A DNA stretch of 27,981 nucleotides from Cloacimonetes bacterium TCS62 (GCA_001577185.1 LSCM01000002.1:1-27981); one strand, 5' to 3'. Counted from the stretch's first letter, positions 1-27,684 are shown. The notes: a model not told the origin generated them from the sequence alone. A program made the numbers and translations.

Positions 1-1605
<1,605 letters not shown>

Positions 1606-1671
1606 ATATTTATAATTTCTCTATCGCACTTCTTAATACCTTACAAAGGTCTTGATTAAAATTAGAGCCTT

Positions 1672-1795
1672 TAGTGATGGTGGTAAGAGCGGTGAGGTCA
1701 CACCTGTTCCCATCCCGAACACAGAAGTTAAGCTCACCTGCGCCGATGGTACTGCATGGGTAACTGTGTGGAAGAGTAGGTCGCCGCCATCACTA
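1672..1795 (+). rRNA. rrf: 5S rRNA
   Basis: It lies 66 nt downstream of 23S. It has the conserved 5S core GGTGAGGTCACACCTGTTCCCATCCCGAACACAGAAGTTAAGC and ..GAAGAGTAGGTCGCCGCCATCACTA. Helix I is formed by 1672-1683 pairing with 1784-1795. The pairing extends outward to 1665/1802, so the mature ends are uncertain by a few nt. Confidence 0.9.
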
Positions 1796-17271: not shown

Positions 17272-17299
17272 AAAAAAACCGAAGTTTGCACTTCGGTTT
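17272..17299. terminator. Bidirectional Rho-independent terminator (HU operon on the minus strand, mutS/DUF523 run on the plus strand)
   Basis: AAACCGAAGT (17276-17285) pairs with ACTTCGGTTT (17290-17299) around the loop TTGC. The A-run at 17272-17278 gives a 7-T tail on the minus strand. On the plus strand the stem is followed by a T-rich stretch. Confidence 0.8.
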
Positions 17300-17976: not shown

Positions 17977-19011
17977 ATGAATGTTATTAAATTTGGTTTG
18001 ATTGGTTGTGGTAGAATTTCTGTAAAACACTGTGAAGCAATAGAGAAGATCGATAATGCAAAGATCGTTACATGTGCGGATATTATAGAAAAACGTGCTT
18101 CAGAAACTTCGGAAAAGTTTAATATTAAAACTTATTACAAAGATTATAAGACAATGTTGGAAAATGAAGATATTGATTGTGTTCTGATTTGTACTCCAAG
18201 TGGGCTACATCCACAAATGGCTGTAGAAGCTGCAGATAGAAAAATCAATATTGTTACAGAAAAACCAATGGGAATTGATCTAAAATCTGCTGATGAAATG
18301 GTGCAAGCTTGTGATGAAAACGCTGTTGAATTATTTGTAGTAAAACAAAATCGTTTGAATCCTCCCATTCAACTGCTAAAGAAGGCAATTGATAAAAATA
18401 GATTTGGTAGGTTGTTCAGTGCAAATATCACAGTCCGTTGGACTAGACCACAAGAATATTATGATATGGCAAAATGGCGTGGTACTTGGGAGTTTGATGG
18501 TGGTGCTTTTATGAATCAAGCTTCACATTATTTTGATCTTATGCAATGGTTAATGGGTCCTGTTGATTCTGTGATGTCATTTACCGCGACTAATAATCAT
18601 AAGATAGAAACTGAAGATCAAGGTGCTGGTATTATTCACTTTCGAAATGGTGCAATTGGAGTAGCGGATGTAACGATGAATACGTATCCAAAGAATTTAG
18701 AAGGCTCGATTACAATTATGGGTGAAAATGGAACTGTTAAGATTGGTGGGATTGCTGTAAATAAAGTAGTTCACTGGGAGTTTAAAGAGTATGATGATGA
18801 TGATAAATTGATCGAGACATCGAATTCTGATCCAACCAGTGTTTATGGCTTCGGACACTTAGGATATTTACAGAATGTTGTAGATGTATTAAATGGACAG
18901 GATACTCCAAATACGGATGGACGCAGTGGAAGAAAATCATTGGAGCTTATTCTAGCATTATACAAGTCAGCTAAGATCGGTCAAAAAGTTGCATTACCAT
19001 TGAAGATTTAA
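17977..19011 (+). CDS. Gfo/Idh/MocA family NAD(P)-dependent oxidoreductase (WbpB / sugar-nucleotide or inositol dehydrogenase-like)
   Basis: 344 aa. It has an N-terminal Rossmann motif (KFGLIGCGRIS), the EKPM motif (VTEKPMG) and a C-terminal alpha/beta domain (WRGTWEFDGGAFMNQASHYFDLMQWL). An AAAGGAG SD lies at 17958-17964. Confidence 0.85.
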   Translation: MNVIKFGLIGCGRISVKHCEAIEKIDNAKIVTCADIIEKRASETSEKFNIKTYYKDYKTMLENEDIDCVLICTPSGLHPQMAVEAADRKINIVTEKPMGIDLKSADEMVQACDENAVELFVVKQNRLNPPIQLLKKAIDKNRFGRLFSANITVRWTRPQEYYDMAKWRGTWEFDGGAFMNQASHYFDLMQWLMGPVDSVMSFTATNNHKIETEDQGAGIIHFRNGAIGVADVTMNTYPKNLEGSITIMGENGTVKIGGIAVNKVVHWEFKEYDDDDKLIETSNSDPTSVYGFGHLGYLQNVVDVLNGQDTPNTDGRSGRKSLELILALYKSAKIGQKVALPLKI

Positions 19012-19029
19012 ACGATAAAGGAGACTAAT

Positions 19030-19917
19030 TTGTTAGTTCAAGAATATTTTAAATCTAGAAAAGAAATTCTCGAAGATGCTTTGGAAAAATATTTAGCTCC
19101 CTCTGATACTTATCCATCTGAGTTAAATAAGGCAATAAGATATAGTGTATTTAGTGATGGTAAGAGATTAAGACCGATTATCTTCTTTGCGACTTATGAG
19201 ATGCTGATCGGTCGTAAGAACATTAGTCGTTTAAGACGATTATTACCAGCTGCTTGTGCATTGGAATTGGTTCATACTGCATCCTTGATACATGATGATC
19301 TACCTAGTGTAGATAACTCTGATGAACGGAGAGGAAAACCGAGTTGTCATGTAAAATTTGGAGAAGCTACAGCCATTTTAGCTGGGGATGCACTGATCAC
19401 AAAATCGATAGAGATCTTAACCAAATTAAAAAATAAAAAAGAAGCTATCAAATCTATTGAGATATTAACAAGAGCAATTTCAACTCGTGGAATGATCGGT
19501 GGACAAGCTGTTGATATAATCTCAGCAAAAAAGAAAACGACTAAAAGTACATTGCGTTATATCCATTTGAAAAAAACAGGTTCTTTATTACAAGCAGCAA
19601 CTGAATTAGCCTGTATGTTCCAAAAAGCAGAAAATAATTTGCGCATTACTTTGGGTAATTTTGCTCTTAACTTAGGGTTAGCTTATCAAATCGTTGATGA
19701 TATTCTTGATGAAGTAGGTAGCTTTGAAGTTCTGGGAAGACAACCAGGAGGAGATTCGAAAAACAAGAAAGCGACTTATCCCTCTCTATTTGGTTTAGAA
19801 AAATCAAAGAAGAAAGCTGAAAAACTTTTAAGAGATTGTTATAATGCAGTCAAGAATATAAAAAACAATGAGATTTTACTAGAATATGTTAATATGATTA
19901 AAGAACGTTTACCATAA
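19030..19917 (+). CDS. Polyprenyl diphosphate synthase, probably geranylgeranyl diphosphate (C20) synthase
   Basis: 295 aa. It has a TTG start with an AAAGGAG SD at 19017-19023. The first Asp-rich motif, with the bacterial-type insertion, is LIHDDLPSVDNSDERRG; the second is QIVDDILD. KRLRP and GQ..D are also present. Small residues (Ala84, Ser85) sit at positions -5/-4 before the first motif. Confidence 0.85.
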   Translation: MLVQEYFKSRKEILEDALEKYLAPSDTYPSELNKAIRYSVFSDGKRLRPIIFFATYEMLIGRKNISRLRRLLPAACALELVHTASLIHDDLPSVDNSDERRGKPSCHVKFGEATAILAGDALITKSIEILTKLKNKKEAIKSIEILTRAISTRGMIGGQAVDIISAKKKTTKSTLRYIHLKKTGSLLQAATELACMFQKAENNLRITLGNFALNLGLAYQIVDDILDEVGSFEVLGRQPGGDSKNKKATYPSLFGLEKSKKKAEKLLRDCYNAVKNIKNNEILLEYVNMIKERLP

Positions 19918-19919
19918 AA

Positions 19920-20744
19920 ATGTCTTATTTGAGGATATTAAGACCATTAAATTGTCTCTTTGTTTTTGTAACAGTCCTTTGTGGCGCTTTCATCCAAGCA
20001 TACACTTACAAAGTTTTCCCGGTTATTTTTTCTGCTATCTCCGCTATGCTGATCGCAGGTGCAGGATATGTCATTAATGATTATTTTGATTATCCAATTG
20101 ATAAGATAAATAAACCATTTAGAGTACTGCCCAGCAAAAAGATCAGTTTGAAAAGAGCATATTTCTATGCAGTTGCCCTTTTTGTTTTAGGAATTGTATT
20201 CTCTTTTTTTACTTATAGAATTGAATGCGTAATTATAGCAATAATAAATACTTTTGTACTGTTTACTTACGCAAAAAAATACAAATTTACTCCACTGATT
20301 GGTAATTTACTTGTATCTTATGCGGCTGCAAGTACTTTTGTTTATGGAGGTTTGAGTAATCATAATTTGAAGAATAGTTTGATAATAGCCTTTTTTGCTT
20401 TTTTATATACTTTGATTAGAGAATTGGTAAAAGATTGTGAGGATATTGATGGAGATAACAAGTTTAATGCTAGAACATTAGCGATAGAAGTTGGCAAAAA
20501 AAAAACTATTTTAATTAGCATTATACCCGGTTTATTTATTTTTGCTTTCAACTATTATTTGTTCCTCTCTGGGAATTTCTCAAAGATAACATTTATCTTT
20601 ATGAATTTGCTTGTAATTGTTCCTCTAATCTATTTTATAGTTACATTGTTAAAAAATATTAAAAAAAAAAATCTCTCACGAATTTCGAAGTTAATTAAGA
20701 TTGATATGTTAATTTTATTAATAATTTTATGGTTTGGGAAGTAA
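19920..20744 (+). CDS. UbiA-family membrane prenyltransferase, digeranylgeranylglyceryl phosphate (DGGGP) synthase-like
   Basis: 274 aa, multi-pass hydrophobic. The two Asp-rich UbiA motifs are YVINDYFDYPIDKINKPFRVLPS and LVKDCEDIDGDNKFNARTLAIEVG. It lies between a GGPP-type synthase and a GGGP synthase, with gaps of 2 nt and 1 nt. The superfamily call is firm; the DGGGPS-specific assignment rests on motif form and context. Confidence 0.75.
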   Translation: MSYLRILRPLNCLFVFVTVLCGAFIQAYTYKVFPVIFSAISAMLIAGAGYVINDYFDYPIDKINKPFRVLPSKKISLKRAYFYAVALFVLGIVFSFFTYRIECVIIAIINTFVLFTYAKKYKFTPLIGNLLVSYAAASTFVYGGLSNHNLKNSLIIAFFAFLYTLIRELVKDCEDIDGDNKFNARTLAIEVGKKKTILISIIPGLFIFAFNYYLFLSGNFSKITFIFMNLLVIVPLIYFIVTLLKNIKKKNLSRISKLIKIDMLILLIILWFGK

Positions 20745-20745
20745 T

Positions 20746-21492
20746 ATGAAAACTTATAGAAAACTAGTTTCATTAGCAAAGAAAAGAGCTAATTATTTTT
20801 GTTTGATCGATCCTGATAAAATGGATAAAAAAGAATCTGTTAAATTTGCTAAAAATTGCGAGAAGAATGGTGCTGACGGTATTTTAGTGGGTGGAAGCTT
20901 GATGATAAATAACAATTTTGAACCAAATTTAAAGATGATCAAAAAAAGCGTTAACATTCCTGTTCTTATTTTTCCTGGAATCTTTAATTTTGTTTCTCCT
21001 TATGCAGATGCGTTATTATTGCTCAGTGTCATTACAAGCAGGAATCCACAAATGTTGATCGGTGAACAAGTTCGTGCTGCCCCATTGATCAAACATTACG
21101 ATTTGGAAGCAATTGGCACAGCATATATGTTGATCGAATCTGGTAATCATACATCTGTTAATTTTATGAGTGGAAGCATGCCATTACCAAGGAATAAAAA
21201 TGATATTGCGGTTTCTCATGCTTTAGCTGGGCAATATCTGGGGATGAACCTTATCTATCTGGATGCAGGTAGCGGAGCAAAATATTCGGTAAGTAATAGT
21301 ATGATTTCAGCTATCCGCAAAAATGTGTCATTACCAATTTTCTTAGGTGGTGGTATAAAAACTCCAGAAGAAGCAGCGCAAAAAGCTAGAGCTGGTGCGG
21401 ACTTTATAGTAACAGGTAATATCCTGGAAGATAATAATGATCCTAAGTTGATTAAAGAATTTGCAGATGCAGTGCATCAAGTAAAACGTTGA
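20746..21492 (+). CDS. Geranylgeranylglyceryl phosphate synthase (GGGPS / PcrB family)
   Basis: 248 aa counted from the ATG at 20746 (the track's TTG at 20734 overlaps the upstream gene). TIM-barrel family landmarks are CLIDPDK, GADGILVGGS, IPVLIFPG, LIYLDAGSGA and LGGGIKTPEEAAQKARAGADFIVTGN. Confidence 0.88.
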   Translation: MKTYRKLVSLAKKRANYFCLIDPDKMDKKESVKFAKNCEKNGADGILVGGSLMINNNFEPNLKMIKKSVNIPVLIFPGIFNFVSPYADALLLLSVITSRNPQMLIGEQVRAAPLIKHYDLEAIGTAYMLIESGNHTSVNFMSGSMPLPRNKNDIAVSHALAGQYLGMNLIYLDAGSGAKYSVSNSMISAIRKNVSLPIFLGGGIKTPEEAAQKARAGADFIVTGNILEDNNDPKLIKEFADAVHQVKR

Positions 21493-22283
21493 TGATTGAT
21501 ATTCATACACATATCCTGCCCAATATTGATGATGGTTCCAAAGATTTAAAGACATCGCTCAGACAATTGGAACTGATGAGAAAAAACGGAACTATGAAAG
21601 TAGTTTGCTCACCACATTTTCTTAGGAACACATTTCATAATACTGCCGATAAAATTGATAAAAAATTTAAGAAGTTACAAAATGCAGTAAATAAAGAAAA
21701 TATCGATATCAAGCTTGTTAAAGGTGTGGAGTTATATTTGGATGATAAAGCATTGGAAACTATTCAAAGTGAAAGATTTTGTATTGAGAATACAGATTAT
21801 ATTCTAGTAGAAACATCTATGACACAGTTTCCTGCAGATCTTTATGAGATCCTTTATCAGCTGGTTAAGGCTGGGTACAAACCGATCATGGCACACCCGG
21901 AAAGATATGGCTCGATAATAAATGATAACGATCTGGCAGAAGATCTAATGTATAAAAATGTTTATTTGCAAATGAATGCAGGAAGTTTATTTGGACAATA
22001 TGGGAAAAAAGTAAAAAAAACAGCCTGGAATTTATTAGAAAAAGGATATGTTCATTTCCTAGCCTCAGATAATCATTGCAATAATAATGAATATAATCTA
22101 CAAAAGGCTTATGAAATTATTGCTGAATATATTGATGAATTTACTGCAAAATTATTAACCAAGGTTAATCCTGAAAAGATGTTGAAAAATGAGATAATTG
22201 ATTACTTCTATCTTGATTCAATGGAAATAGAATATAAAAACATATTCCATAAATTTATCAGTAAAATAAAGAAAATCTTATGA
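21492..22283 (+). CDS. PHP-domain metal-dependent phosphoesterase (CpsB/YwqE-like)
   Basis: 263 aa counted from the ATG at 21492, which shares its A with the GGGPS stop (TGATG). The N-terminal MIDIHTHILPNIDDGSKDL, plus SPHF, AHPERY and ASDNH, are the His/Asp metal ligands typical of CpsB-type PHP phosphatases. Confidence 0.8.
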   Translation: MIDIHTHILPNIDDGSKDLKTSLRQLELMRKNGTMKVVCSPHFLRNTFHNTADKIDKKFKKLQNAVNKENIDIKLVKGVELYLDDKALETIQSERFCIENTDYILVETSMTQFPADLYEILYQLVKAGYKPIMAHPERYGSIINDNDLAEDLMYKNVYLQMNAGSLFGQYGKKVKKTAWNLLEKGYVHFLASDNHCNNNEYNLQKAYEIIAEYIDEFTAKLLTKVNPEKMLKNEIIDYFYLDSMEIEYKNIFHKFISKIKKIL

Positions 22284-23254
22284 AAAAAATTTTGATAACT
22301 GGTAGTAGTGGATTTATTGGTAGGAATGTAACAAAAAAGCTTGCTAAACAAAATTATGATATTACAGCGATCATTCGGCCGGAAACAGATTCAAATAGAA
22401 TTCAAGGATTCGCTGATTCTATACGTTTTGAAGAGATCAATCTAGCACGAATAAATTCATTAAGAAATTTTCTTTCAAATAATTCTTTTGATTTAATATA
22501 TCATATCGGGGCACTTCGGGGTGGAAGAAAATTTTCAAAACAGGATTTTTATACTACGAATGTAAAAGCCACAGAGCAGATAATTATTTCAGCTTTAAAA
22601 AATAATACTAAGCTTATATTTTGCTCTTCTGTGGGAATATTTGGAGCAATACCGTATCGATTACCAGCTGACAATAATACAAAACGGAAAGCAGATAATT
22701 ATTATCATTACACAAAGATTCAAGCAGAGAAATTGATCCAAAAATATGTCAAGCAAGGACTGAATGCTGTAATCGTGCGTCCTTCAATTACTTATGGAAC
22801 AGGTGATTACGGATTCCCCTATACATTAACAAAATTAATAGATAAAAAACTTTTGTTCTTATCAAAACAAAAGATAAAAATCCACCTTACAAATATTGAT
22901 TTTCTTTCTGATGTGTTCACCCAGTTAGCGAAGTATCAAATAAGTTCAGGTAGATCTTATATTGTTGCAGATGCAAAACCAGTTGAGATCCACGAACTTG
23001 CAGATTTTATTAATAATGAAATTAATAATACTGATTATCCCAAATATAAGAATATCAACAGAAAATTTTTTCGTTTAGGAGAATCAATCTCAAGACTTCT
23101 TGGTAGTGAACTTTGGACTTCAAGATTTGAGCTCATATCAAGAGATTGGTTCTATAAGATAGATGATGTTCAAAACGATTTTGATCTTAAACTTCCAAAT
23201 ACAATTCCTGCTTTTAAGATCGTAACAAATTGGTACAAGAAGGAAGACAGATAA
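22280..23254 (+). CDS. NAD-dependent epimerase/dehydratase family (extended SDR) protein
   Basis: 324 aa. It has the Rossmann motif KILITGSSGFIGRNV and the catalytic YxxxK (YHYTKIQAEK). Its start overlaps the upstream stop (ATGA). Confidence 0.85.
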   Translation: MKKILITGSSGFIGRNVTKKLAKQNYDITAIIRPETDSNRIQGFADSIRFEEINLARINSLRNFLSNNSFDLIYHIGALRGGRKFSKQDFYTTNVKATEQIIISALKNNTKLIFCSSVGIFGAIPYRLPADNNTKRKADNYYHYTKIQAEKLIQKYVKQGLNAVIVRPSITYGTGDYGFPYTLTKLIDKKLLFLSKQKIKIHLTNIDFLSDVFTQLAKYQISSGRSYIVADAKPVEIHELADFINNEINNTDYPKYKNINRKFFRLGESISRLLGSELWTSRFELISRDWFYKIDDVQNDFDLKLPNTIPAFKIVTNWYKKEDR

Positions 23255-23256
23255 GT

Positions 23257-24093
23257 ATGGCTATACCTATTATTCAGAATTGGAAAAATTACTTCAAAGA
23301 TCCTGATGAAGGACTAGGCTCTTCTTACGAGAGAGTTATCCTCAATGGAAAATTAGTTCAGATCTGTAAATATTTTGAGGCAAAGAATATTTTGGAAGTT
23401 CCAAGTTTTGGATTCACAGGTGTCTCTGGTATCAATAGTATGGAACTTGCAAAAAGAGGATATGATGTGACTATTGTAGATCATGATAAAAATCGCCTAA
23501 AACAAATTAATGATCTTTGGGCGGATCTAGAGTATAAACTTATTTCGAAATTTATAATAGACTATTTTTTTCTACCTTTTGATAATAATGCGTTTGATCT
23601 AAGTTGGAATTTTTCTGCGCTATGGTTTACCAAAGATCTGGAAAAATTCTTAGCTGAACTATCTAGAGTTACAAAAAAGGTGATCTTTCTTTGCGTACCA
23701 AATAGATCCGGTTTAGGTTATTTAAGTCAAAAGTATTTTGGGAAAGATTATCTTAATAAAAATGTGTTTGAAGAAAATATAAAACCAAAAAATATAAAAA
23801 AGACGATGAAAAAATTGGATTGGCAATTGATTAGTTCGAACTTTATTGATTGTCCACCTTGGCCTGATATTGGTATGCCTAAGGAAAAATTTCTCAATAA
23901 GTTTGGTCTAAATTCAAGGCAAAAAGAAAAGAAAAGAAAATCGATTTCGATTTTAAAGTATTATCAGGGTGAGGATGAAAACTTTCCTGCAAAAATGATG
24001 AAATATTCATGGTTAGAGACTTATGCACCATCGTTCATCAAGTATTTTTGGGCTCATCACAAATATTTTTTATTTATACCAAAAGGAAAATGA
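23257..24093 (+). CDS. Class I methyltransferase-fold protein (degenerate SAM motif I)
   Basis: 278 aa counted from the ATG at 23257, 2 nt after the upstream stop and preceded by AGGAAG. Motif order resembles Methyltransf_11: ILEVPSFGFTGVSG (motif I-like), YDVTIVDHD (post-I acidic), FDLSWNFSALWF and KKVIFLCVPN. The Gly-rich loop is atypical, so the function is uncertain. Confidence 0.5.
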   Translation: MAIPIIQNWKNYFKDPDEGLGSSYERVILNGKLVQICKYFEAKNILEVPSFGFTGVSGINSMELAKRGYDVTIVDHDKNRLKQINDLWADLEYKLISKFIIDYFFLPFDNNAFDLSWNFSALWFTKDLEKFLAELSRVTKKVIFLCVPNRSGLGYLSQKYFGKDYLNKNVFEENIKPKNIKKTMKKLDWQLISSNFIDCPPWPDIGMPKEKFLNKFGLNSRQKEKKRKSISILKYYQGEDENFPAKMMKYSWLETYAPSFIKYFWAHHKYFLFIPKGK

Positions 24094-24115
24094 TAAATTT
24101 TTTGAGGTTATATTT

Positions 24116-24313
24116 ATGAAGATTAAGTTTTTTTTAAAAGCATCTATCCCGTTCGGTATTATTTTGTTTTGCTTATATTTTTTTATTCCCTTTTTTAGAA
24201 GAGGCCAAACACTTACGCAAATTGTAATTAAGGTGATAGTTACTGCCGTAGTTTATGGTATAGTAATGTTACTAATTAGAAAGAAAAAAAATAATTCAGA
24301 TGAAAATGAATAA
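24116..24313 (+). CDS. 65-aa two-helix membrane peptide, unknown function
   Basis: Counted from the ATG at 24116 (MKIKFFLKASIPFGIILFCLYFFIPFF..VIKVIVTAVVYGIVMLLIRKKK), with GAGG upstream. The track's upstream extension overlaps the previous gene. It has two hydrophobic segments and a basic tail. Confidence 0.5.
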   Translation: MKIKFFLKASIPFGIILFCLYFFIPFFRRGQTLTQIVIKVIVTAVVYGIVMLLIRKKKNNSDENE

Positions 24314-25307
24314 AGATAAGATCAATTGGCTTTTAGGTATTTCTCTGGGAATAATATTTCTTATTGCCTGGATTCATATTGTAGATTGGCATGAATTTGT
24401 AAGTTATTTTGAAGAGTTCAGGCTAACTTATGTAGTATTTTTTTCTATATTTTATATCATAGCTTATTTTTTCCGTAGTTGGCGCTGGAAAATAATTATG
24501 AAACCGATCTTTAAGATGACTTTTTATGAGAGTTTTAGGCTTTTTATGACTGGTTTGATGGTTAATTATCTGATTCCAGTACGGGCTGGAGAACTTTCCA
24601 AATCGTTAATATTAAAGAATAAACATAATGTTCGAATATCTAAAAGTTTACCAACAGTTTTTCTTGATAAAATTACTGATCTTTTTCCGATAATAATTAT
24701 CATGATATTGATCCCGCAGATTTCAATTCAGCTAAATGTTACTTTAAAGCTCATTATTAGTGCTCTCTTATTGATATTCTTGCTCTTTATAGGATTTTTA
24801 TTCTTTGCTGTAAGTCATAAGAAAAAAGCAACTTCGTTTCTACATTCTCTTTTGAAAATATTACCTTCAAAATATAGACGAAAATTGGAAGATTTCTTTA
24901 CAAATTTTGTTGAAGGTATGGGAATTATGCGGAACCGAATTGCAGACAATATCAAAGTATATCTACTTACAATTTTAGCTGTATTTTCTGAAGCAATTTA
25001 TATTTATGCAGTATTTCATGCTTTTGGTTCAACTATTTCTTACCCCAAAATTTTATTTGGTTATACATTGATGAATCTTACGTACATACTACCAACACCA
25101 CCTGCTCAAATAGGTTCTAACCAATTTATGTGGGTATTGATCTTTGGTTATGCTCTAGGAGCTAATGAAAATTTAACAAGTGCTGCTGTCACATTTTCGC
25201 ATCTTCTAACTACGATCTGGATCTTTTTGATTGGGGTGATATCATTGATTACATTAAAACTGGATTTTTATGAAATAGTTAAATTAAAAAATAATGAGGT
25301 AATATGA
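24300..25307 (+). CDS. UPF0104 / lysyl-phosphatidylglycerol-synthase-TM-region-like (flippase-like) integral membrane protein
   Basis: 335 aa, about 8 hydrophobic segments. The family-typical FRSWRWKIIM and YLIPVRAGELSK motifs are present. It overlaps the 65-aa ORF by 14 nt. No C-terminal aminoacyl-transferase domain is present. Confidence 0.7.
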   Translation: MKMNKDKINWLLGISLGIIFLIAWIHIVDWHEFVSYFEEFRLTYVVFFSIFYIIAYFFRSWRWKIIMKPIFKMTFYESFRLFMTGLMVNYLIPVRAGELSKSLILKNKHNVRISKSLPTVFLDKITDLFPIIIIMILIPQISIQLNVTLKLIISALLLIFLLFIGFLFFAVSHKKKATSFLHSLLKILPSKYRRKLEDFFTNFVEGMGIMRNRIADNIKVYLLTILAVFSEAIYIYAVFHAFGSTISYPKILFGYTLMNLTYILPTPPAQIGSNQFMWVLIFGYALGANENLTSAAVTFSHLLTTIWIFLIGVISLITLKLDFYEIVKLKNNEVI

Positions 25308-26284
25308 AGAATATTGAAATTTTAGATACGTTATCAGAAACTAGAGGTAAAATCGAAAAGGAGATCAAGAAAGTTATTATTGGGCAAGATGAAATAGTGG
25401 AACAGGTTTTGATTGCACTATTTGCTGATGGTCATTGTCTCATCGAAGGAGTTCCCGGATTAGCTAAAACATTAATGATATCAGCTTTGGCCAAAATACT
25501 CAACATGAAATTCAGTAGAATTCAATTTACACCTGATCTAATGCCTTCTGATATTACCGGGACTGATATTTTGGCAGAAAACAAGGCAGATGGTAAAAGA
25601 TACTTCGAATATATAAAAGGTCCTGTCTTTTCCAATATAATTTTAGCTGATGAGATCAATCGTACACCACCTAAAACTCAAGCAGCTTTGCTGCAAGCTA
25701 TGCAAGAAAGAGAGGTGACTGCAGGGAATAATACCTATAAATTGGATAAACCATTCTTGGTTTTAGCTACACAAAATCCAATTGAACAAGAGGGAACTTA
25801 TCCACTACCAGAAGCTCAATTAGATAGATTTATGTTTTACTTAAATATTAATTATCCCTCCCATGAGGAAGAGAAAGAAATAGTTAAGATAGATAAAAAA
25901 GCCTTTCATACATTACAACCTGTAATTGAGAAAAATTTAATTAATACTATACAAAAAACGATATCTGAAATACCGATAAGTGATCATGTGCTGGAGTTTG
26001 CTGTAAAACTTTCTAGAGCTACACGCCCTCAAGATCCACAATCCCCAGAATTTATAAAAAAATGGGTCAACTGGGGAGCTGGACCGCGAGCATCACAATT
26101 TCTTGCTATTGCTGCTAAAACTCGTGCTGCTCTTAATGGTAATCTTACACCTTCTATTGAAGATGTGAAGAAAGTAGCTGTGATCGTGTTACAGCATCGC
26201 ATTATTGTTTCTTTTGCAGCTGAAACGGAGGGATTATCTTCTAAAAATATCATTGACAAACTTATATCAATATTAAATAAATAA
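25304..26284 (+). CDS. MoxR-family AAA+ ATPase
   Basis: 326 aa. It has Walker A EGVPGLAKT, Walker B and sensor ILADEINRTPPKTQAALLQAMQEREVT, and VLATQNPIEQEGTYPLPEAQLDRF. Its start overlaps the upstream stop (ATGA). Confidence 0.92.
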   Translation: MKNIEILDTLSETRGKIEKEIKKVIIGQDEIVEQVLIALFADGHCLIEGVPGLAKTLMISALAKILNMKFSRIQFTPDLMPSDITGTDILAENKADGKRYFEYIKGPVFSNIILADEINRTPPKTQAALLQAMQEREVTAGNNTYKLDKPFLVLATQNPIEQEGTYPLPEAQLDRFMFYLNINYPSHEEEKEIVKIDKKAFHTLQPVIEKNLINTIQKTISEIPISDHVLEFAVKLSRATRPQDPQSPEFIKKWVNWGAGPRASQFLAIAAKTRAALNGNLTPSIEDVKKVAVIVLQHRIIVSFAAETEGLSSKNIIDKLISILNK

Positions 26285-26343: not shown

Positions 26344-26799
26344 ATGAAAAATATCAAAGAGAAATACGCAGATTTAAGCTCAAAGATTTATAAAATGTGC
26401 AATAGAAAGCAACTCATAAGGAGACGATGTCTGAATTTAGGCAAAATGGAATGTAAAATGTTAGATTTCCTTCATTCTGTAGATAAGCCAATTTGCATGA
26501 ATGAATTATCTAAAGAAATGGAAGTTTCAAATAGCAGAATCACCCGCATTATTGATGCGTTAGTTGCAAAAGAATATGTTTATAGATTTCCTTCTAAAGA
26601 AGATAGAAGAAGCTGGCTGGTTAATATTACAGATAGCGGTAGAGAAATGCATGAAATTGTAAGTAAAGATTTTTTAGATCTGCAAGCAAAACTGATCGCA
26701 TCATTACCTGAACATAAAATAGAATCAATTCTAGAAGATTTAAATATTTATGTAAATGCGTATTTAAAAGCTATTAATGAGAGGGATAATGAGCAGTAA
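26344..26799 (+). CDS. MarR family transcriptional regulator
   Basis: 151 aa. It has a winged HTH (MNELSKEMEVSNSRITRIIDALVAKEYVYRFPSKEDRRSWLVNITDSG), an AAGGAG SD and several N-terminal cysteines. Confidence 0.85.
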   Translation: MKNIKEKYADLSSKIYKMCNRKQLIRRRCLNLGKMECKMLDFLHSVDKPICMNELSKEMEVSNSRITRIIDALVAKEYVYRFPSKEDRRSWLVNITDSGREMHEIVSKDFLDLQAKLIASLPEHKIESILEDLNIYVNAYLKAINERDNEQ

Positions 26800-27214
26800 A
26801 ACAGAAGTAAAATGGCTGGGTGATATGGCTTTTGATGTTGAATTGAACAATCATCATTTCACCATCGATGCTGACGAAAAAGTTGGAGGGCAAGATCAAG
26901 GACCACGTCCCAAAGGTCTTTTACTGAGTGGACTAGCTGGTTGTACAGGTATGGATGTAGTCTCTATTCTTAAAAAAATGAAAGTAAAGGATTACAAATT
27001 TACGATTGAAGTAGAGGGAAAATTAAAAAAGGAATTCCCAAAACCATATGAAAAAATTGTAACTCAATTTAATTTCAAAGGAAAAAATTTACCTAAGGAA
27101 AAGATCAAGAAAGCAGTAAAATTATCTGAGGAAAGATATTGTGGTGTTTCCGATATGCTTAAGAAAGCTGCTGAAATGAAAATCGAAATTAATATTAATG
27201 GAGAAAGAATATGA
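26789..27214 (+). CDS. OsmC family peroxiredoxin-like protein
   Basis: 141 aa counted from the ATG at 26789 (GAGGG SD at 26781-26785), overlapping the marR end by 11 nt. Both conserved Cys contexts are present: GLAGCTGMDV and EERYCGVSDML. Confidence 0.85.
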   Translation: MSSKTEVKWLGDMAFDVELNNHHFTIDADEKVGGQDQGPRPKGLLLSGLAGCTGMDVVSILKKMKVKDYKFTIEVEGKLKKEFPKPYEKIVTQFNFKGKNLPKEKIKKAVKLSEERYCGVSDMLKKAAEMKIEININGERI

Positions 27215-27684
27215 AAAAATTTGCAGTCGTACTTATAGTAACAATTGTGTCATTCTCAGTTGCATGTGGTCAAGATGAGGCTGTAAATAAAGAAAAGAAT
27301 TCCCCAATAAATTGGTTAATCAATCTTGAAGAAGCTCAAGAGATAGCTGAGACCGAAAATAAGCATGTATTTATCCACTTTACTGGCTCTGACTGGTGTG
27401 GATGGTGTATGAAGCTTAAAGATGAAATATATTCAAAACAACCTTTCATAGATTATGTCTCAGAAAATCTTGTTATGGTAAAGATAGATTTTCCCAAAAA
27501 GATCAAGCAGTCTGAGGAGATAAAACAATACAATAGATCATTAGCTCAGAAATATCAAATTCGGGGATTTCCTACTGTACTACTATTAAATCCAAATGGG
27601 GAAATCATTGGTAAAACTGGTTACCAAAGAGGTGGTTCAGAGAAATATGTTGAACATTTAAAAGAATTCATAAACAAGGAGTAG
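27211..27684 (+). CDS. Secreted/lipoprotein thioredoxin-fold protein (Thioredoxin_7-like, WCGWC active site)
   Basis: 157 aa. It has a signal peptide with a lipobox-like FSVAC|G, the redox motif HFTGSDWCGWCMKL and a cis-Pro region (IRGFPT). Its start overlaps the OsmC stop (ATGA). Confidence 0.8.
   Translation: MKKFAVVLIVTIVSFSVACGQDEAVNKEKNSPINWLINLEEAQEIAETENKHVFIHFTGSDWCGWCMKLKDEIYSKQPFIDYVSENLVMVKIDFPKKIKQSEEIKQYNRSLAQKYQIRGFPTVLLLNPNGEIIGKTGYQRGGSEKYVEHLKEFINKE

Follow-up and report, generated by a model that had tools for sequence, protein, structure and literature searches.

The window analysed here, a 27,981-nucleotide stretch of the Cloacimonetes bacterium TCS62 genome (LSCM01000002.1), carries three consecutive and intact + strand ORFs encoding a prenyl diphosphate synthase (ORF1), a UbiA-type prenyltransferase resembling DGGGP synthase (ORF2) and a GGGP synthase (GGGPS; ORF3), embedded in a longer series of genes (table 1). 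ORF1 is separated from ORF2 by 2 nt and ORF2 from ORF3 by 1 nt, the same distances that the initial annotation gave, and every motif string that it cited is found literally in the translations (DDLPSVD at residue 89 and DDILD at residue 223 of ORF1; NDYFDYPIDKINKPFRVLPS at residue 53 and KDCEDIDGDNKFNARTLA at residue 171 of ORF2; and CLIDPDK at residue 19, GADGILVGGS at 42, IYLDAGSGA at 170, GGGIKTPEEA at 201 and GADFIVTGN at 217 of ORF3). The three families for which profile searches had been proposed were all assigned by Pfam (polyprenyl_synt to ORF1, 8e-56; UbiA to ORF2, 1.6e-35; PcrB to ORF3, 1.5e-45). An alternative start of ORF3 at 20734, present in the ORF listing, would give a protein of 252 aa.

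Table 1. Features of the window, with coordinates counted from its first nucleotide
Feature	Coordinates	Strand	Details
23S rRNA, 3' part	1-1607	+	Rfam LSU_rRNA_bacteria, 1597.7 bits
5S rRNA	1676-1792	+	Rfam 5S_rRNA, 103.2 bits
Gfo/Idh/MocA-family NAD(P) oxidoreductase	17977-19011	+	344 aa; Pfam GFO_IDH_MocA N- and C-terminal domains
ORF1, prenyl synthase gene	19030-19917	+	295 aa; TTG start, AGGAG site upstream (ORF listing)
ORF2, UbiA gene	19920-20744	+	274 aa; ATG start
ORF3, GGGPS gene	20746-21492	+	248 aa; ATG at 20746 per public gene calls
CpsB/YwqE-type PHP-family metal-dependent phosphatase	21492-22283	+	263 aa; Pfam CpsB_CapC, 8e-58
Extended SDR, NDP-sugar epimerase/dehydratase type	22280-23254	+	324 aa; Pfam Epimerase, 2e-31, and related families
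Class I SAM-dependent methyltransferase	23257-24093	+	278 aa; Pfam Methyltransf_11 over residues 66-150 only
Small predicted membrane protein	24116-24313	+	65 aa; fills apparent gap downstream of methyltransferase
LPG_synthase_TM/flippase-like polytopic membrane protein	24300-25307	+	335 aa; Pfam LPG_synthase_TM, 2e-37
MoxR-type AAA+ ATPase	25304-26284	+	326 aa; Pfam AAA_3, 2.5e-63, and AAA_lid_2

The trio had been described as one compact unit, a description that proved too narrow: ten tightly packed genes run in the same direction as one string (17977-26284), with the trio in its front part. Neighbouring genes of this string overlap by at most 14 nt and are never more than 22 nt apart, no + strand terminator-like site was found within it, and the trio is probably co-transcribed as part of it. 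The transcription unit probably begins with the oxidoreductase gene, which ends 18 nt ahead of ORF1 and is separated from the divergent HU gene upstream by a 263-nt noncoding gap; the oxidoreductase reaches no NCBIfam equivalog cutoff, and its gene adjoins the trio in 38 of 49 Cloacimonadota loci (it is missing from loci L009 and L013-L015). On the downstream side, the start codon of the phosphatase gene overlaps the GGGPS stop codon (TGATG) and the SDR gene overlaps the phosphatase gene by 4 nt. The 65-aa membrane protein has no significant Pfam family, and tblastn places matches to it (E between 3e-12 and 6e-9) at the syntenic position in L039, L046, L045, L042, L021, and L057. The flippase-like protein scores 90 against a cutoff of 43 for NCBIfam TIGR00374, its gene being found in most loci (including L063, L067, L074, and L079) and missing from L048-L051, and the MoxR gene, last of the string and overlapping its predecessor by 4 nt, keeps its position in almost all loci.

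ORF3 exceeds the curated GGGPS thresholds (TIGR01769, 216.2 against a cutoff of 161.55; NF003198, 276.8 against 247), and in the PDB it matches the group II structures 4mm1, 4jej, 6nke, and 6jo3 at 3e-50 to 1e-41, including the enzymes of M. thermautotrophicus (4mm1; 3e-50, 174 bits) and F. johnsoniae (4jej; 8e-48, 166 bits). Matches to PcrB (3vzx, 1viz) reach only about 1e-7 and those to the group I enzyme of A. fulgidus (2f6u) 4e-7. A role as a heptaprenyl PcrB was rejected on the basis of these PcrB E-values and of the heptaprenylglyceryl phosphate synthase model NF003197, against which ORF3 scores 37.6, far below the cutoff of 260. ORF3 thus classifies as a group II GGGPS, a TIM-barrel enzyme that would make the first ether bond. 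Among the standard phosphate-binding loops of the TIM barrel (GSG, GGG, and xGx; PMC9385802), G175-S-G177 and G201-G-G203 do not vary across 62 sequences; in the third loop, T223-G-N225, G224 alone is invariant (Thr in 56/62, Asn in 50/62).

A Tyr/Tyr/Glu triad has been called strictly conserved and held responsible for both catalysis and G1P stereospecificity (PMC9385802). ORF3 has the two tyrosines, Y127 and Y171, and carries Asp173 at the Glu position, so that the triad is not retained in its strict form; Asn225, in turn, sits at the group II Thr position. Every one of the 117 close homologs that could be scored has Asp at position 173. Of the group II representatives, 139 could be scored and 39 carry it, a frequency that marks it as a common variant and no special adaptation. 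Judged from the alignments, Asp173 is a conservative and recurrent substitution, the strict-triad criterion is too strict and the departure from it does not show ORF3 to be inactive.

The altered pocket, in a cell that would lack G1P dehydrogenase, is nonetheless the reason to weigh an alternative in which the backbone would be bacterial sn-glycerol-3-phosphate (G3P) and the isoprenoid diether would be stereochemically non-archaeal. Asp173 in place of a triad residue proposed to set stereospecificity, its presence in every scorable close homolog and Asn225 in place of Thr are all compatible with this. So is the accessible text of Villanueva et al. (ISME J 2021; PMC7852524), according to which egsA and araM are missing from the published MAGs, the phylum has no reported G1P dehydrogenase or CDP-archaeol synthase, and a purified Cloacimonetes GGGPS (from MAG NIOZ-UU3) formed GGGP in vitro from GGPP and either G1P or G3P; the window, too, holds no G1P dehydrogenase gene. 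In the same text, however, E. coli without araM yielded G1P-based archaeal lipids all the same and a strong selectivity of the pathway for G1P is reported (PMC7852524), and Asp at position 173 is a common variant among group II enzymes; we regard a G3P backbone as possible but unlikely.

For ORF2, the best PDB relative is the DGGGPS of M. jannaschii (6m31), matched end to end (residues 2-270) at 3.6e-35, with chlorophyll synthase second at 3.6e-11. Its top five NCBIfam models all belong to the DGGGPS group (three named DGGGPS and two "prenyltransferase"; 210-110 bits), followed at a distance by ChlG (71), EboC (64), UbiA (42), CyoE (32), and MenA (24). ORF2 also falls under every NCBIfam DGGGPS equivalog cutoff, the best being NF009521 (209.6 against 296); in these comparisons, DGGGPS enzymes are its nearest relatives by rank and it stands outside the curated archaeal equivalogs. 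Quinone, heme, and chlorophyll prenyltransferases were rejected as identities, since DGGGPS is far ahead in both NCBIfam and PDB scores. Two UbiA Asp-rich motifs are present, N53-D-x-x-D57-x-x-x-D61 and D172-x-x-D175-x-x-x-D179, in which N53, D54, D57, D61, D175, and D179 are kept in all aligned orthologs and D172 is Asp in 49 of 50. Orthologs inside the phylum share just 45-60% identity, and homologs bear the annotation geranylgeranylglycerol-phosphate geranylgeranyltransferase. We predict that ORF2 is an integral membrane prenyltransferase of the UbiA superfamily, DGGGP-synthase-like, that would make the second ether bond. Of the two groupings that the initial annotation had named as refuting its reading, ORF3 with PcrB and ORF2 with quinone or heme prenyltransferases, neither occurred.

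The first Asp-rich motif of ORF1 (D89-D-L-P-S-V-D95) contains a two-residue insertion, and D223-D-I-L-D227 makes up the second motif; the motif aspartates are invariant across 49 aligned orthologs, as are A84 and S85, which occupy positions -5 and -4 before the first motif. The signature of type-II GGPPS combines such an insertion with Ser, Ala, or Met, all of them small, at -4/-5, and FPP synthases have an aromatic residue at this site (PMC9385802); the separate housekeeping synthase of the Cloacimonetes MAG NIOZ-UU1, found in an IspA context, has Tyr at -5. Because A84/S85 and the insertion in the first motif (FARM) fit the published rule, we infer that ORF1 is a short-chain trans-prenyl diphosphate synthase, type-II GGPPS-like and with a C20 product. 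The "GGPP-type" label initially given to ORF1 agrees with these residues but goes further than the curated models, in which ORF1 passes the farnesyl-diphosphate-synthase subfamily (FPPsyn, 290.9 against a cutoff of 275) and lies below the CrtE/GGPPS equivalog NF045685 (255.6 against 460). In the published E. coli experiment, GGPP was supplied by crtE and not by a Cloacimonadota synthase (PMC7852524). The family assignments of the trio as a whole, as first proposed, are upheld by Pfam, by NCBIfam and by the solved relatives, which separate GGGPS from PcrB (3e-50 versus 1e-7) and DGGGPS from the next UbiA family (3.6e-35 versus 3.6e-11), and since the Asp-rich motifs and the GSG and GGG loops are kept in essentially all of the 49-62 orthologs, the genes appear to be under functional constraint.

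The contig is marked as bacterial by the 23S and 5S rRNA genes that it carries, and the flanks of the window also encode an SNF2 helicase, a U32 peptidase and the Rho, MutS, HU, SPOR, TonB-dependent receptor, and T9SS-tail proteins already recognized in the initial annotation. Between 2 kb and 27 kb, G+C content stays uniformly at 28-36%, and the trio does not stand out as a compositional island. The same gene order, with the UbiA and synthase genes adjoining GGGPS, occurs in 47 of the 52 Cloacimonadota species genomes with enough upstream sequence, an arrangement that is therefore not due to chance, and the Cloacimonadota form of the locus is found in 59 of 62 related genome loci, including NIOZ-UU2. 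In L063 and L067, the block is retained and the upstream flanks differ. Some of these loci are labelled just "uncultured bacterium" and two Armatimonadota (L009, L013), and the homologs that carry a source organism name are all Cloacimonadota.

The Armatimonadota labels indicate that binning errors do happen around the locus, and the nearest homologs of ORF2 outside the phylum include archaea (Methanosphaera, 40% identity; Aenigmarchaeota; Undinarchaeota), both of which would fit an artefact of assembly or binning, or genes that were recently acquired from an archaeon by horizontal transfer. Such an origin is effectively refuted, and we give it almost no credence: the bacterial rRNA and housekeeping genes share the contig, the G+C content is uniform, the order is kept in dozens of independent assemblies (megabase contigs among them), related arrangements are also present on a complete chromosome, and a published scaffold was confirmed by PCR and resequencing (PMC7852524). 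The synthase, moreover, has the bacterial and plant type II form and not the archaeal type I form, in which the -5 residue is bulky and the insertion is missing.

Linkage of GGGPS to the accessory genes downstream is slightly tighter than its linkage to DGGGPS and the synthase (47/52): of 45 loci, 44 have the phosphatase gene after GGGPS and 44 the SDR gene adjacent, and the methyltransferase gene is adjacent in 40 of 41. In L048-L051, L055, and L079, GGGPS keeps these neighbours and has neither DGGGPS nor the synthase next to it. Together with the stop/start overlap of GGGPS and phosphatase, this pattern could suggest that the enzymes act as predicted and make a minor or specialised lipid rather than bulk membrane lipid; in one version, drawn by analogy with Bacillus PcrB and its heptaprenylglyceryl phosphate product, a geranylgeranylglycerol ether would be dephosphorylated and further modified by the phosphatase, SDR, and methyltransferase. 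A precedent is the single-chain C35 ether lipid described for Bacillales, which has no second isoprenoid chain (PMC9179154, accessible text).

We consider a specialised product distinctly improbable. The accessory genes also occur without GGGPS and DGGGPS, as synthase-phosphatase-SDR-methyltransferase in L074/L075 (the phosphatase gene thus being present in L074, a locus without GGGPS) and as SDR-methyltransferase alone in L080, and in Calditrichota the latter two genes, a fixed pair in every examined context, lie among glycosyltransferases, a setting that suggests a part in the chemistry of sugars or of the envelope. The closest PDB relatives of the phosphatase are protein-tyrosine phosphatases (YwqE, 3qy6, 4e-30; CpsB, 1e-27), and the SDR has weak matches to sugar-nucleotide enzymes (best 1e-10). 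The methyltransferase has no sequence relative in the PDB, and its AlphaFold model (pLDDT 87) predicts a generic methyltransferase fold (TM ~0.5 to TleD, RebM, and others); a profile search returned 784 family members, the best 120 of which are all at least 52% identical, and by this measure the protein belongs to a distinctive, highly conserved family. Finally, orthologous GGGPS and DGGGPS sufficed to produce a phospholipid in E. coli (PMC7852524).

We consider it highly probable that the window is a Cloacimonadota chromosomal fragment with the phylum's known archaeal-type ether-lipid genes, the trio building the diether. In the proposed pathway, the synthase would convert DMAPP and IPP to C20 geranylgeranyl diphosphate, the soluble GGGPS would ether-link one geranylgeranyl chain to glycerol phosphate, and the membrane-bound UbiA DGGGPS would add the second chain, yielding unsaturated archaetidic acid (DGGGP). 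A head group would then be added by ordinary bacterial enzymes of the CDP-diacylglycerol pathway encoded elsewhere in the genome; in E. coli carrying GGGPS and DGGGPS from the same phylum, a head group was indeed added and PG-archaeol was formed (PMC7852524). The cell presumably uses the ether lipid in its membrane.

As of March 2026, the phylum Cloacimonadota had no member in pure culture, and no native lipid has accordingly been assigned to it. This point and the one on G1P dehydrogenase count against the diether reading, as do the ORF2 scores below the DGGGPS cutoffs, the passing of the FPP-synthase subfamily only by ORF1, Asp173 and Asn225 in GGGPS, and the origin of the tested proteins in another species.

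Among known systems, the archaeal diether pathway (GGPPS, GGGPS, and DGGGPS; 4mm1, 6m31) employs the same two ether-forming families with the same catalytic motifs, with Glu and Thr where the window GGGPS has Asp173 and Asn225. The window GGGPS and DGGGPS genes are contiguous, whereas in archaea such co-localisation is reported for some Euryarchaeota only (PMC7852524). The Bacteroidota group IIb GGGPS of Flavobacterium johnsoniae (4jej), which has GGGP synthase activity in vitro (PMC7852524; PMC9385802), is likewise a bacterial group II enzyme from the same superphylum; it retains the canonical Glu, unlike the window enzyme, and the Bacteroidota loci retrieved (L059-L061, 46-48% identity) have no neighbouring genes in common with the window. 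Bacillales PcrB (group Ib; 1viz, 3vzx) shares the TIM-barrel prenyltransferase superfamily and is also a bacterial maker of isoprenoid glycerol ethers, but it is just distantly related to the window GGGPS (E ~1e-7), uses a C35 donor and forms no second ether bond (PMC9179154; PMC9385802).

The closest counterpart is the locus of Villanueva et al., whose accessible text reports GGGPS, DGGGPS, and polyprenyl synthase genes co-localised in this phylum and expressed in situ, the co-localisation of the two ether-bond genes being restricted to it among bacteria (PMC7852524). Phylum and genes are the same, on one scaffold beside bacterial marker genes, and the suspicion voiced in the initial annotation, that Cloacimonadota GGGPS/DGGGPS pairs had been published before, was correct. 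The NIOZ-UU2 contig (L056) has the same downstream order (identity of 84% for GGGPS over residues 91-248, 81% for MoxR, and 72% for the flippase-like protein) and comes from a different species, with DNA identity of about 65-71% over the shared stretch; the experimentally tested proteins (NIOZ-UU3) likewise belong to a species other than that of the window. The locus is thus of a kind already published and biochemically tested in 2020/21, a rediscovery whose core is not new. The phosphatase, SDR, and methyltransferase neighbours, the chain-length residues and the Asp substitution are not discussed in the accessible text of that report (PMC7852524), and what the present analysis adds to the published core is the ten-gene context, the linkage of the accessory genes, the Ala/Ser chain-length pair and the Asp in place of the catalytic Glu.

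The genes at 19030-21492 very probably encode the enzymes and the pathway that the initial annotation had read in them, namely, the core of an archaeal-type ether-lipid route carried by a bacterium, and this interpretation is supported both by family assignments and by the bacterial character of the flanks. The three plus-strand open reading frames are real, with the 2-nt and 1-nt spacing first described, and all of the motif strings quoted for them were located, each in the protein to which it had been ascribed; Pfam assigns polyprenyl_synt, UbiA, and PcrB to ORF1, ORF2, and ORF3, respectively. The surroundings comprise the 3′ part of a 23S rRNA gene, a 5S rRNA gene and a series of bacterial protein markers (SNF2 helicase, TonB-dependent receptor, T9SS-tail protein, Rho, U32 peptidase, SPOR protein, MutS, and HU), and because the G+C content of the window is uniform (~28-36%) apart from the rRNA genes, the trio does not form a compositional island. 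The catalytic motifs of the synthase, DGGGPS, and GGGPS are kept in essentially all of 49-62 orthologs, and this near-complete conservation indicates that the three genes are under constraint. The description of the trio as one compact unit holds for its tight spacing but not for its extent, as the three genes lie within a string of ten (table).

Features of the ten-gene string and its flanks, with the number of loci in which each gene is adjacent to GGGPS, counted over those Cloacimonadota species genomes in which the flanking sequence is long enough
Feature	Coordinates	Strand	Description	Adjacent to GGGPS
Hairpin	17276-17299		perfect 10-bp hairpin	
Ten-gene string	17977-26284	+	neighboring genes overlap by up to 14 nt or lie up to 22 nt apart	
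Gene 1		+	Gfo/Idh/MocA oxidoreductase, first of string	38/49
Gene 2 (ORF1)	19030-19917	+	predicted prenyl synthase, 295 aa; TTG start eight bases 3′ of an AGGAG site	47/52
Gene 3 (ORF2)	19920-20744	+	predicted DGGGPS, 274 aa	47/52
Gene 4 (ORF3)	20746-21492	+	predicted GGGPS, 248 aa from the ATG chosen in public gene calls	
Gene 5		+	CpsB/YwqE-type PHP phosphatase; start overlaps the GGGPS stop codon	44/45
Gene 6		+	extended short-chain dehydrogenase/reductase (SDR)	44/45
Gene 7		+	class I methyltransferase	40/41
Gene 8	24116-24313	+	predicted membrane protein, 65 aa	
Gene 9		+	LPG_synthase_TM flippase-like protein	
Gene 10		+	MoxR ATPase, end of string	
Genes after MoxR	26344-27684		MarR-family regulator, OsmC-like and thioredoxin-like genes	

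ORF3 is placed by its sequence among the group II GGGP synthases. It scores above both curated GGGPS cutoffs in NCBIfam (TIGR01769, 216 vs. 162; NF003198, 277 vs. 247) and falls far short of the heptaprenylglyceryl phosphate synthase model (38 bits; cutoff, 260). Its group II matches of solved structure are the enzymes of M. thermautotrophicus (3e-50), F. johnsoniae (8e-48), and Thermoplasma (~1e-42), with Bacillus/Geobacillus PcrB and the A. fulgidus group I enzyme at only ~1e-7; a grouping with heptaprenyl-type PcrB, which the initial annotation had set against its own reading, is therefore contradicted by both the model scores and the structural matches. The nearest relatives of ORF2 are, by profile comparison, the DGGGP synthases: its five top NCBIfam models all belong to the DGGGPS group (best 210 bits) and stand well apart from chlorophyll synthase (71), EboC (64), UbiA (42), heme o synthase (32), and MenA (24), so that a placement among quinone or heme prenyltransferases, the corresponding alternative for this protein, is likewise disfavored. 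The sole strong relative of solved structure is the M. jannaschii DGGGPS (residues 2-270, 3.6e-35), followed by chlorophyll synthase (3.6e-11); ORF2 falls below the DGGGPS equivalog cutoffs of NCBIfam models that were built on archaeal sequences. This gene is also the fastest evolving of the block, with 45-60% identity across the phylum compared with 70-83% for the synthase and GGGPS.

ORF1 belongs to the short-chain trans-prenyl synthases. Cyanobacterial FPP and GGPP synthases are its closest matches of solved structure, and it passes NCBIfam only at the level of the FPP synthase subfamily. Ala84 and Ser85, at positions -5 and -4 before the first Asp-rich motif, are invariant in 49 orthologs, and the motif itself has a two-residue insertion; small residues at these positions together with an insertion constitute the signature of type II GGPP synthases (PMC9385802). 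NIOZ-UU1, one of the published Cloacimonetes metagenome-assembled genomes (MAGs), encodes a second, housekeeping synthase in an xseB-ispA-dut context (scaffold NODE_14144; PMC7852524 supplement), and this IspA has Tyr at -5 (ELIHTYSLIHDD), which is the FPP synthase pattern, whereas Ala is invariant in the cluster synthase. Since ORF1 matches the type II signature and the housekeeping enzyme has Tyr, there are good grounds to expect that the product of ORF1 would be GGPP.

The scan found no plus-strand terminator-like site inside the ten-gene string, although both the promoter and the terminator scans gave site counts no higher than those obtained with shuffled sequence. The CpsB-type phosphatase is translationally coupled to GGGPS, whose linkage to the phosphatase, SDR, and methyltransferase (~98% of loci) is slightly commoner than that to DGGGPS (~90%). 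In two related loci (L063 and L067), the block from synthase to MoxR is kept despite unrelated upstream flanks and a UbiA identity of only 41-43%. What appears to be a 206-nt gap between the methyltransferase and flippase-like genes is occupied by the 65-aa membrane protein, which has syntenic homologs in at least six other loci. We considered whether the Gfo/Idh/MocA oxidoreductase might stand in for a G1P dehydrogenase and rejected the idea: adjacency alone speaks for it, and the gene is absent from 11 of 49 loci; its best NCBIfam models are inositol and sugar dehydrogenases, all far under their cutoffs. The genes that follow MoxR keep their position in most loci and look like an oxidative-stress module beside the lipid/envelope string. 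On the other side, the hairpin (AAACCGAAGT...ACTTCGGTTT) lies where the 2-thiouracil desulfurase and HU genes converge; it has T-rich tails on both strands and looks like a bidirectional terminator.

The accessory genes downstream of GGGPS also occur in other arrangements, of which a profile protein search and five neighborhood look-ups give a sample, not a census. Several Cloacimonadales loci (L048-L051, L055, and L079, several on megabase contigs) have GGGPS-phosphatase-SDR-methyltransferase with neither synthase nor DGGGPS adjacent; the genes immediately upstream of GGGPS in L051 encode an IS200-like transposase and a GNAT acetyltransferase. Two Cloacimonadota-type loci, L074 (6250-11843) and L075, have the synthase, a 111-nt gap, and then phosphatase-SDR-methyltransferase-flippase-like-MoxR, with GGGPS and DGGGPS absent; the synthase is a 61%-identical ortholog that retains the Ala/Ser pair, and the arrangement could have arisen by clean loss of both ether-bond genes or could predate their insertion. 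A further locus (L080) has the SDR-methyltransferase pair alone. In Calditrichota (L073, 8032-17811; L081, 8024-12487), an SDR-methyltransferase pair 48% and 54% identical to that of the window precedes two GT2 glycosyltransferases, and L073 continues downstream with a GT-C enzyme (PMT_2), a prenyl synthase of the GGPPS type, and a UbiA protein (356 aa) that belongs to a different subfamily, a cluster that could specify an undescribed polyprenyl-linked glycan or lipid pathway.

The hypothesis that these accessory genes are dedicated ether-lipid tailoring enzymes is weakened by the loci that lack GGGPS and DGGGPS (L074, L080) and by the glycosyltransferase contexts in Calditrichota; they are modular, not dedicated. 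The phosphatase is nearest to protein-tyrosine phosphatases and the SDR to sugar-nucleotide enzymes. The methyltransferase belongs to a remarkably conserved family of 784 members, the best 120 of which in the profile search are all at least 52% identical, and has no solved sequence relative in a PDB search; its confident model (pLDDT 87) matches generic class I methyltransferases in Foldseek at a TM of ~0.5, in a list that mixes prenyl C-methyltransferases (TleD, FPP C6-MT) with sugar and small-molecule methyltransferases, a fold too generic for a conclusion on function. We consider sugar or envelope chemistry a more probable function of the phosphatase, SDR, and methyltransferase than the tailoring of ether lipids, and a role for them on GGGP or DGGGP improbable. 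A further idea, which we hold to be a long shot, is that the Cloacimonadota ether-lipid enzymes make up a single branch of some wider, undescribed pathway for envelope lipids, a reading allowed by the coupling of GGGPS to the phosphatase, by the linkage frequencies (~98% vs. 90%) and by the proximity of SDR-methyltransferase to a GGPPS-type synthase and a UbiA protein in L073. Dephosphorylation, redox or methyl tailoring, and flipping of GGGP or DGGGP would in that case yield a new bacterial isoprenoid ether lipid, not an archaeol-type phospholipid, and this lipid might have a G3P backbone built by the Asp-type GGGPS.

The trio in Cloacimonadota is an already published locus and not a new one, and the caution voiced earlier, that such pairs had been reported from this phylum, was correct; the window is that known locus. 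The published study describes, for Cloacimonetes, co-localized GGGPS and DGGGPS that share their scaffold with a polyprenyl synthase, PCR confirmation of the scaffold, expression of the genes in the Black Sea, and a purified GGGPS that forms GGGP from G1P or G3P alike; the tested proteins came from NIOZ-UU3, and co-expression of the genes in E. coli gave a phosphatidylglycerol-archaeol that carries eight double bonds (Villanueva et al., ISME J 2021, PMC7852524). The study also reports the MAGs as being without G1P dehydrogenase and CDP-archaeol synthase, and co-localization of GGGPS and DGGGPS among bacteria as confined to Cloacimonetes (PMC7852524), with which the solitary DGGGPS homologs of Marinimicrobia are consistent. 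A later survey, covering 46 genomes of the phylum, detected both genes in roughly one in four, and no pure culture of Cloacimonadota existed as of March 2026. All source-named homologs of ORF3 and ORF2 are from Candidatus Cloacimonadota/Cloacimonetes, and public NCBI assemblies already contain the window's own proteins. Of the 62 loci obtained from a scan in which each species was represented by one genome, 59 have the Cloacimonadota form, a contig of MAG NIOZ-UU2 among them. Some of these 59 are labeled only "uncultured bacterium" and two are labeled Armatimonadota; the latter MAG contigs (L009 and L013) have a Cloacimonadota-type locus with 79% GGGPS identity and unchanged gene order, and are probably mis-binned or mislabeled in public records.

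The Tyr/Tyr/Glu triad of GGGPS has been called strictly conserved and a determinant of catalysis and G1P stereospecificity (PMC9385802). The triad in the window is Tyr127/Tyr171/Asp173, with Asp in place of Glu, as in all 117 scorable close homologs and likewise in all Cloacimonadota loci, NIOZ-UU2 included. Of the 139 scorable group II representatives, 39 also have Asp; the variant thus recurs within the group and is no unique adaptation, the wording "strictly conserved" is too strong, and we reject the proposal of Asp173 as an adaptation peculiar to Cloacimonadota that would account for G3P use. Asn225 occupies a position at which group II enzymes typically have Thr. Both residues are sensible targets for mutagenesis, as mere candidates for an effect on specificity, because the phylum has no known G1P source and the tested ortholog took both stereoisomers. 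Domain fusions of GGGPS were uninformative as a clue to that source, the longer representatives having a phosphopantetheinyl-transferase domain or nothing recognizable; one representative (P0390, 446 aa) joins a 4′-phosphopantetheinyl transferase domain to a C-terminal GGGPS domain, and may be a genuine fusion or a gene-calling artifact.

The presence of fatty-acid ester and archaeal-type isoprenoid ether pathways in one bacterium bears on the "lipid divide" and on the viability of mixed membranes in nature. As this significance has already been claimed, with biochemical support, for the same phylum and gene set, the window supplies a further instance of a known phenomenon. The new elements are modest: the trio is placed within a string of ten genes, the linkage of GGGPS to its neighbors is counted, the accessory genes prove to be modular, the dedicated synthase is contrasted with the housekeeping one, and an Asp/Asn variant of the GGGPS pocket is described. 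The cluster synthase with its Ala/Ser pair and the Asp-for-Glu GGGPS are concrete and cheap targets for mutagenesis and assay, the latter having Asp173 where the enzymes of both M. thermautotrophicus and F. johnsoniae have Glu.
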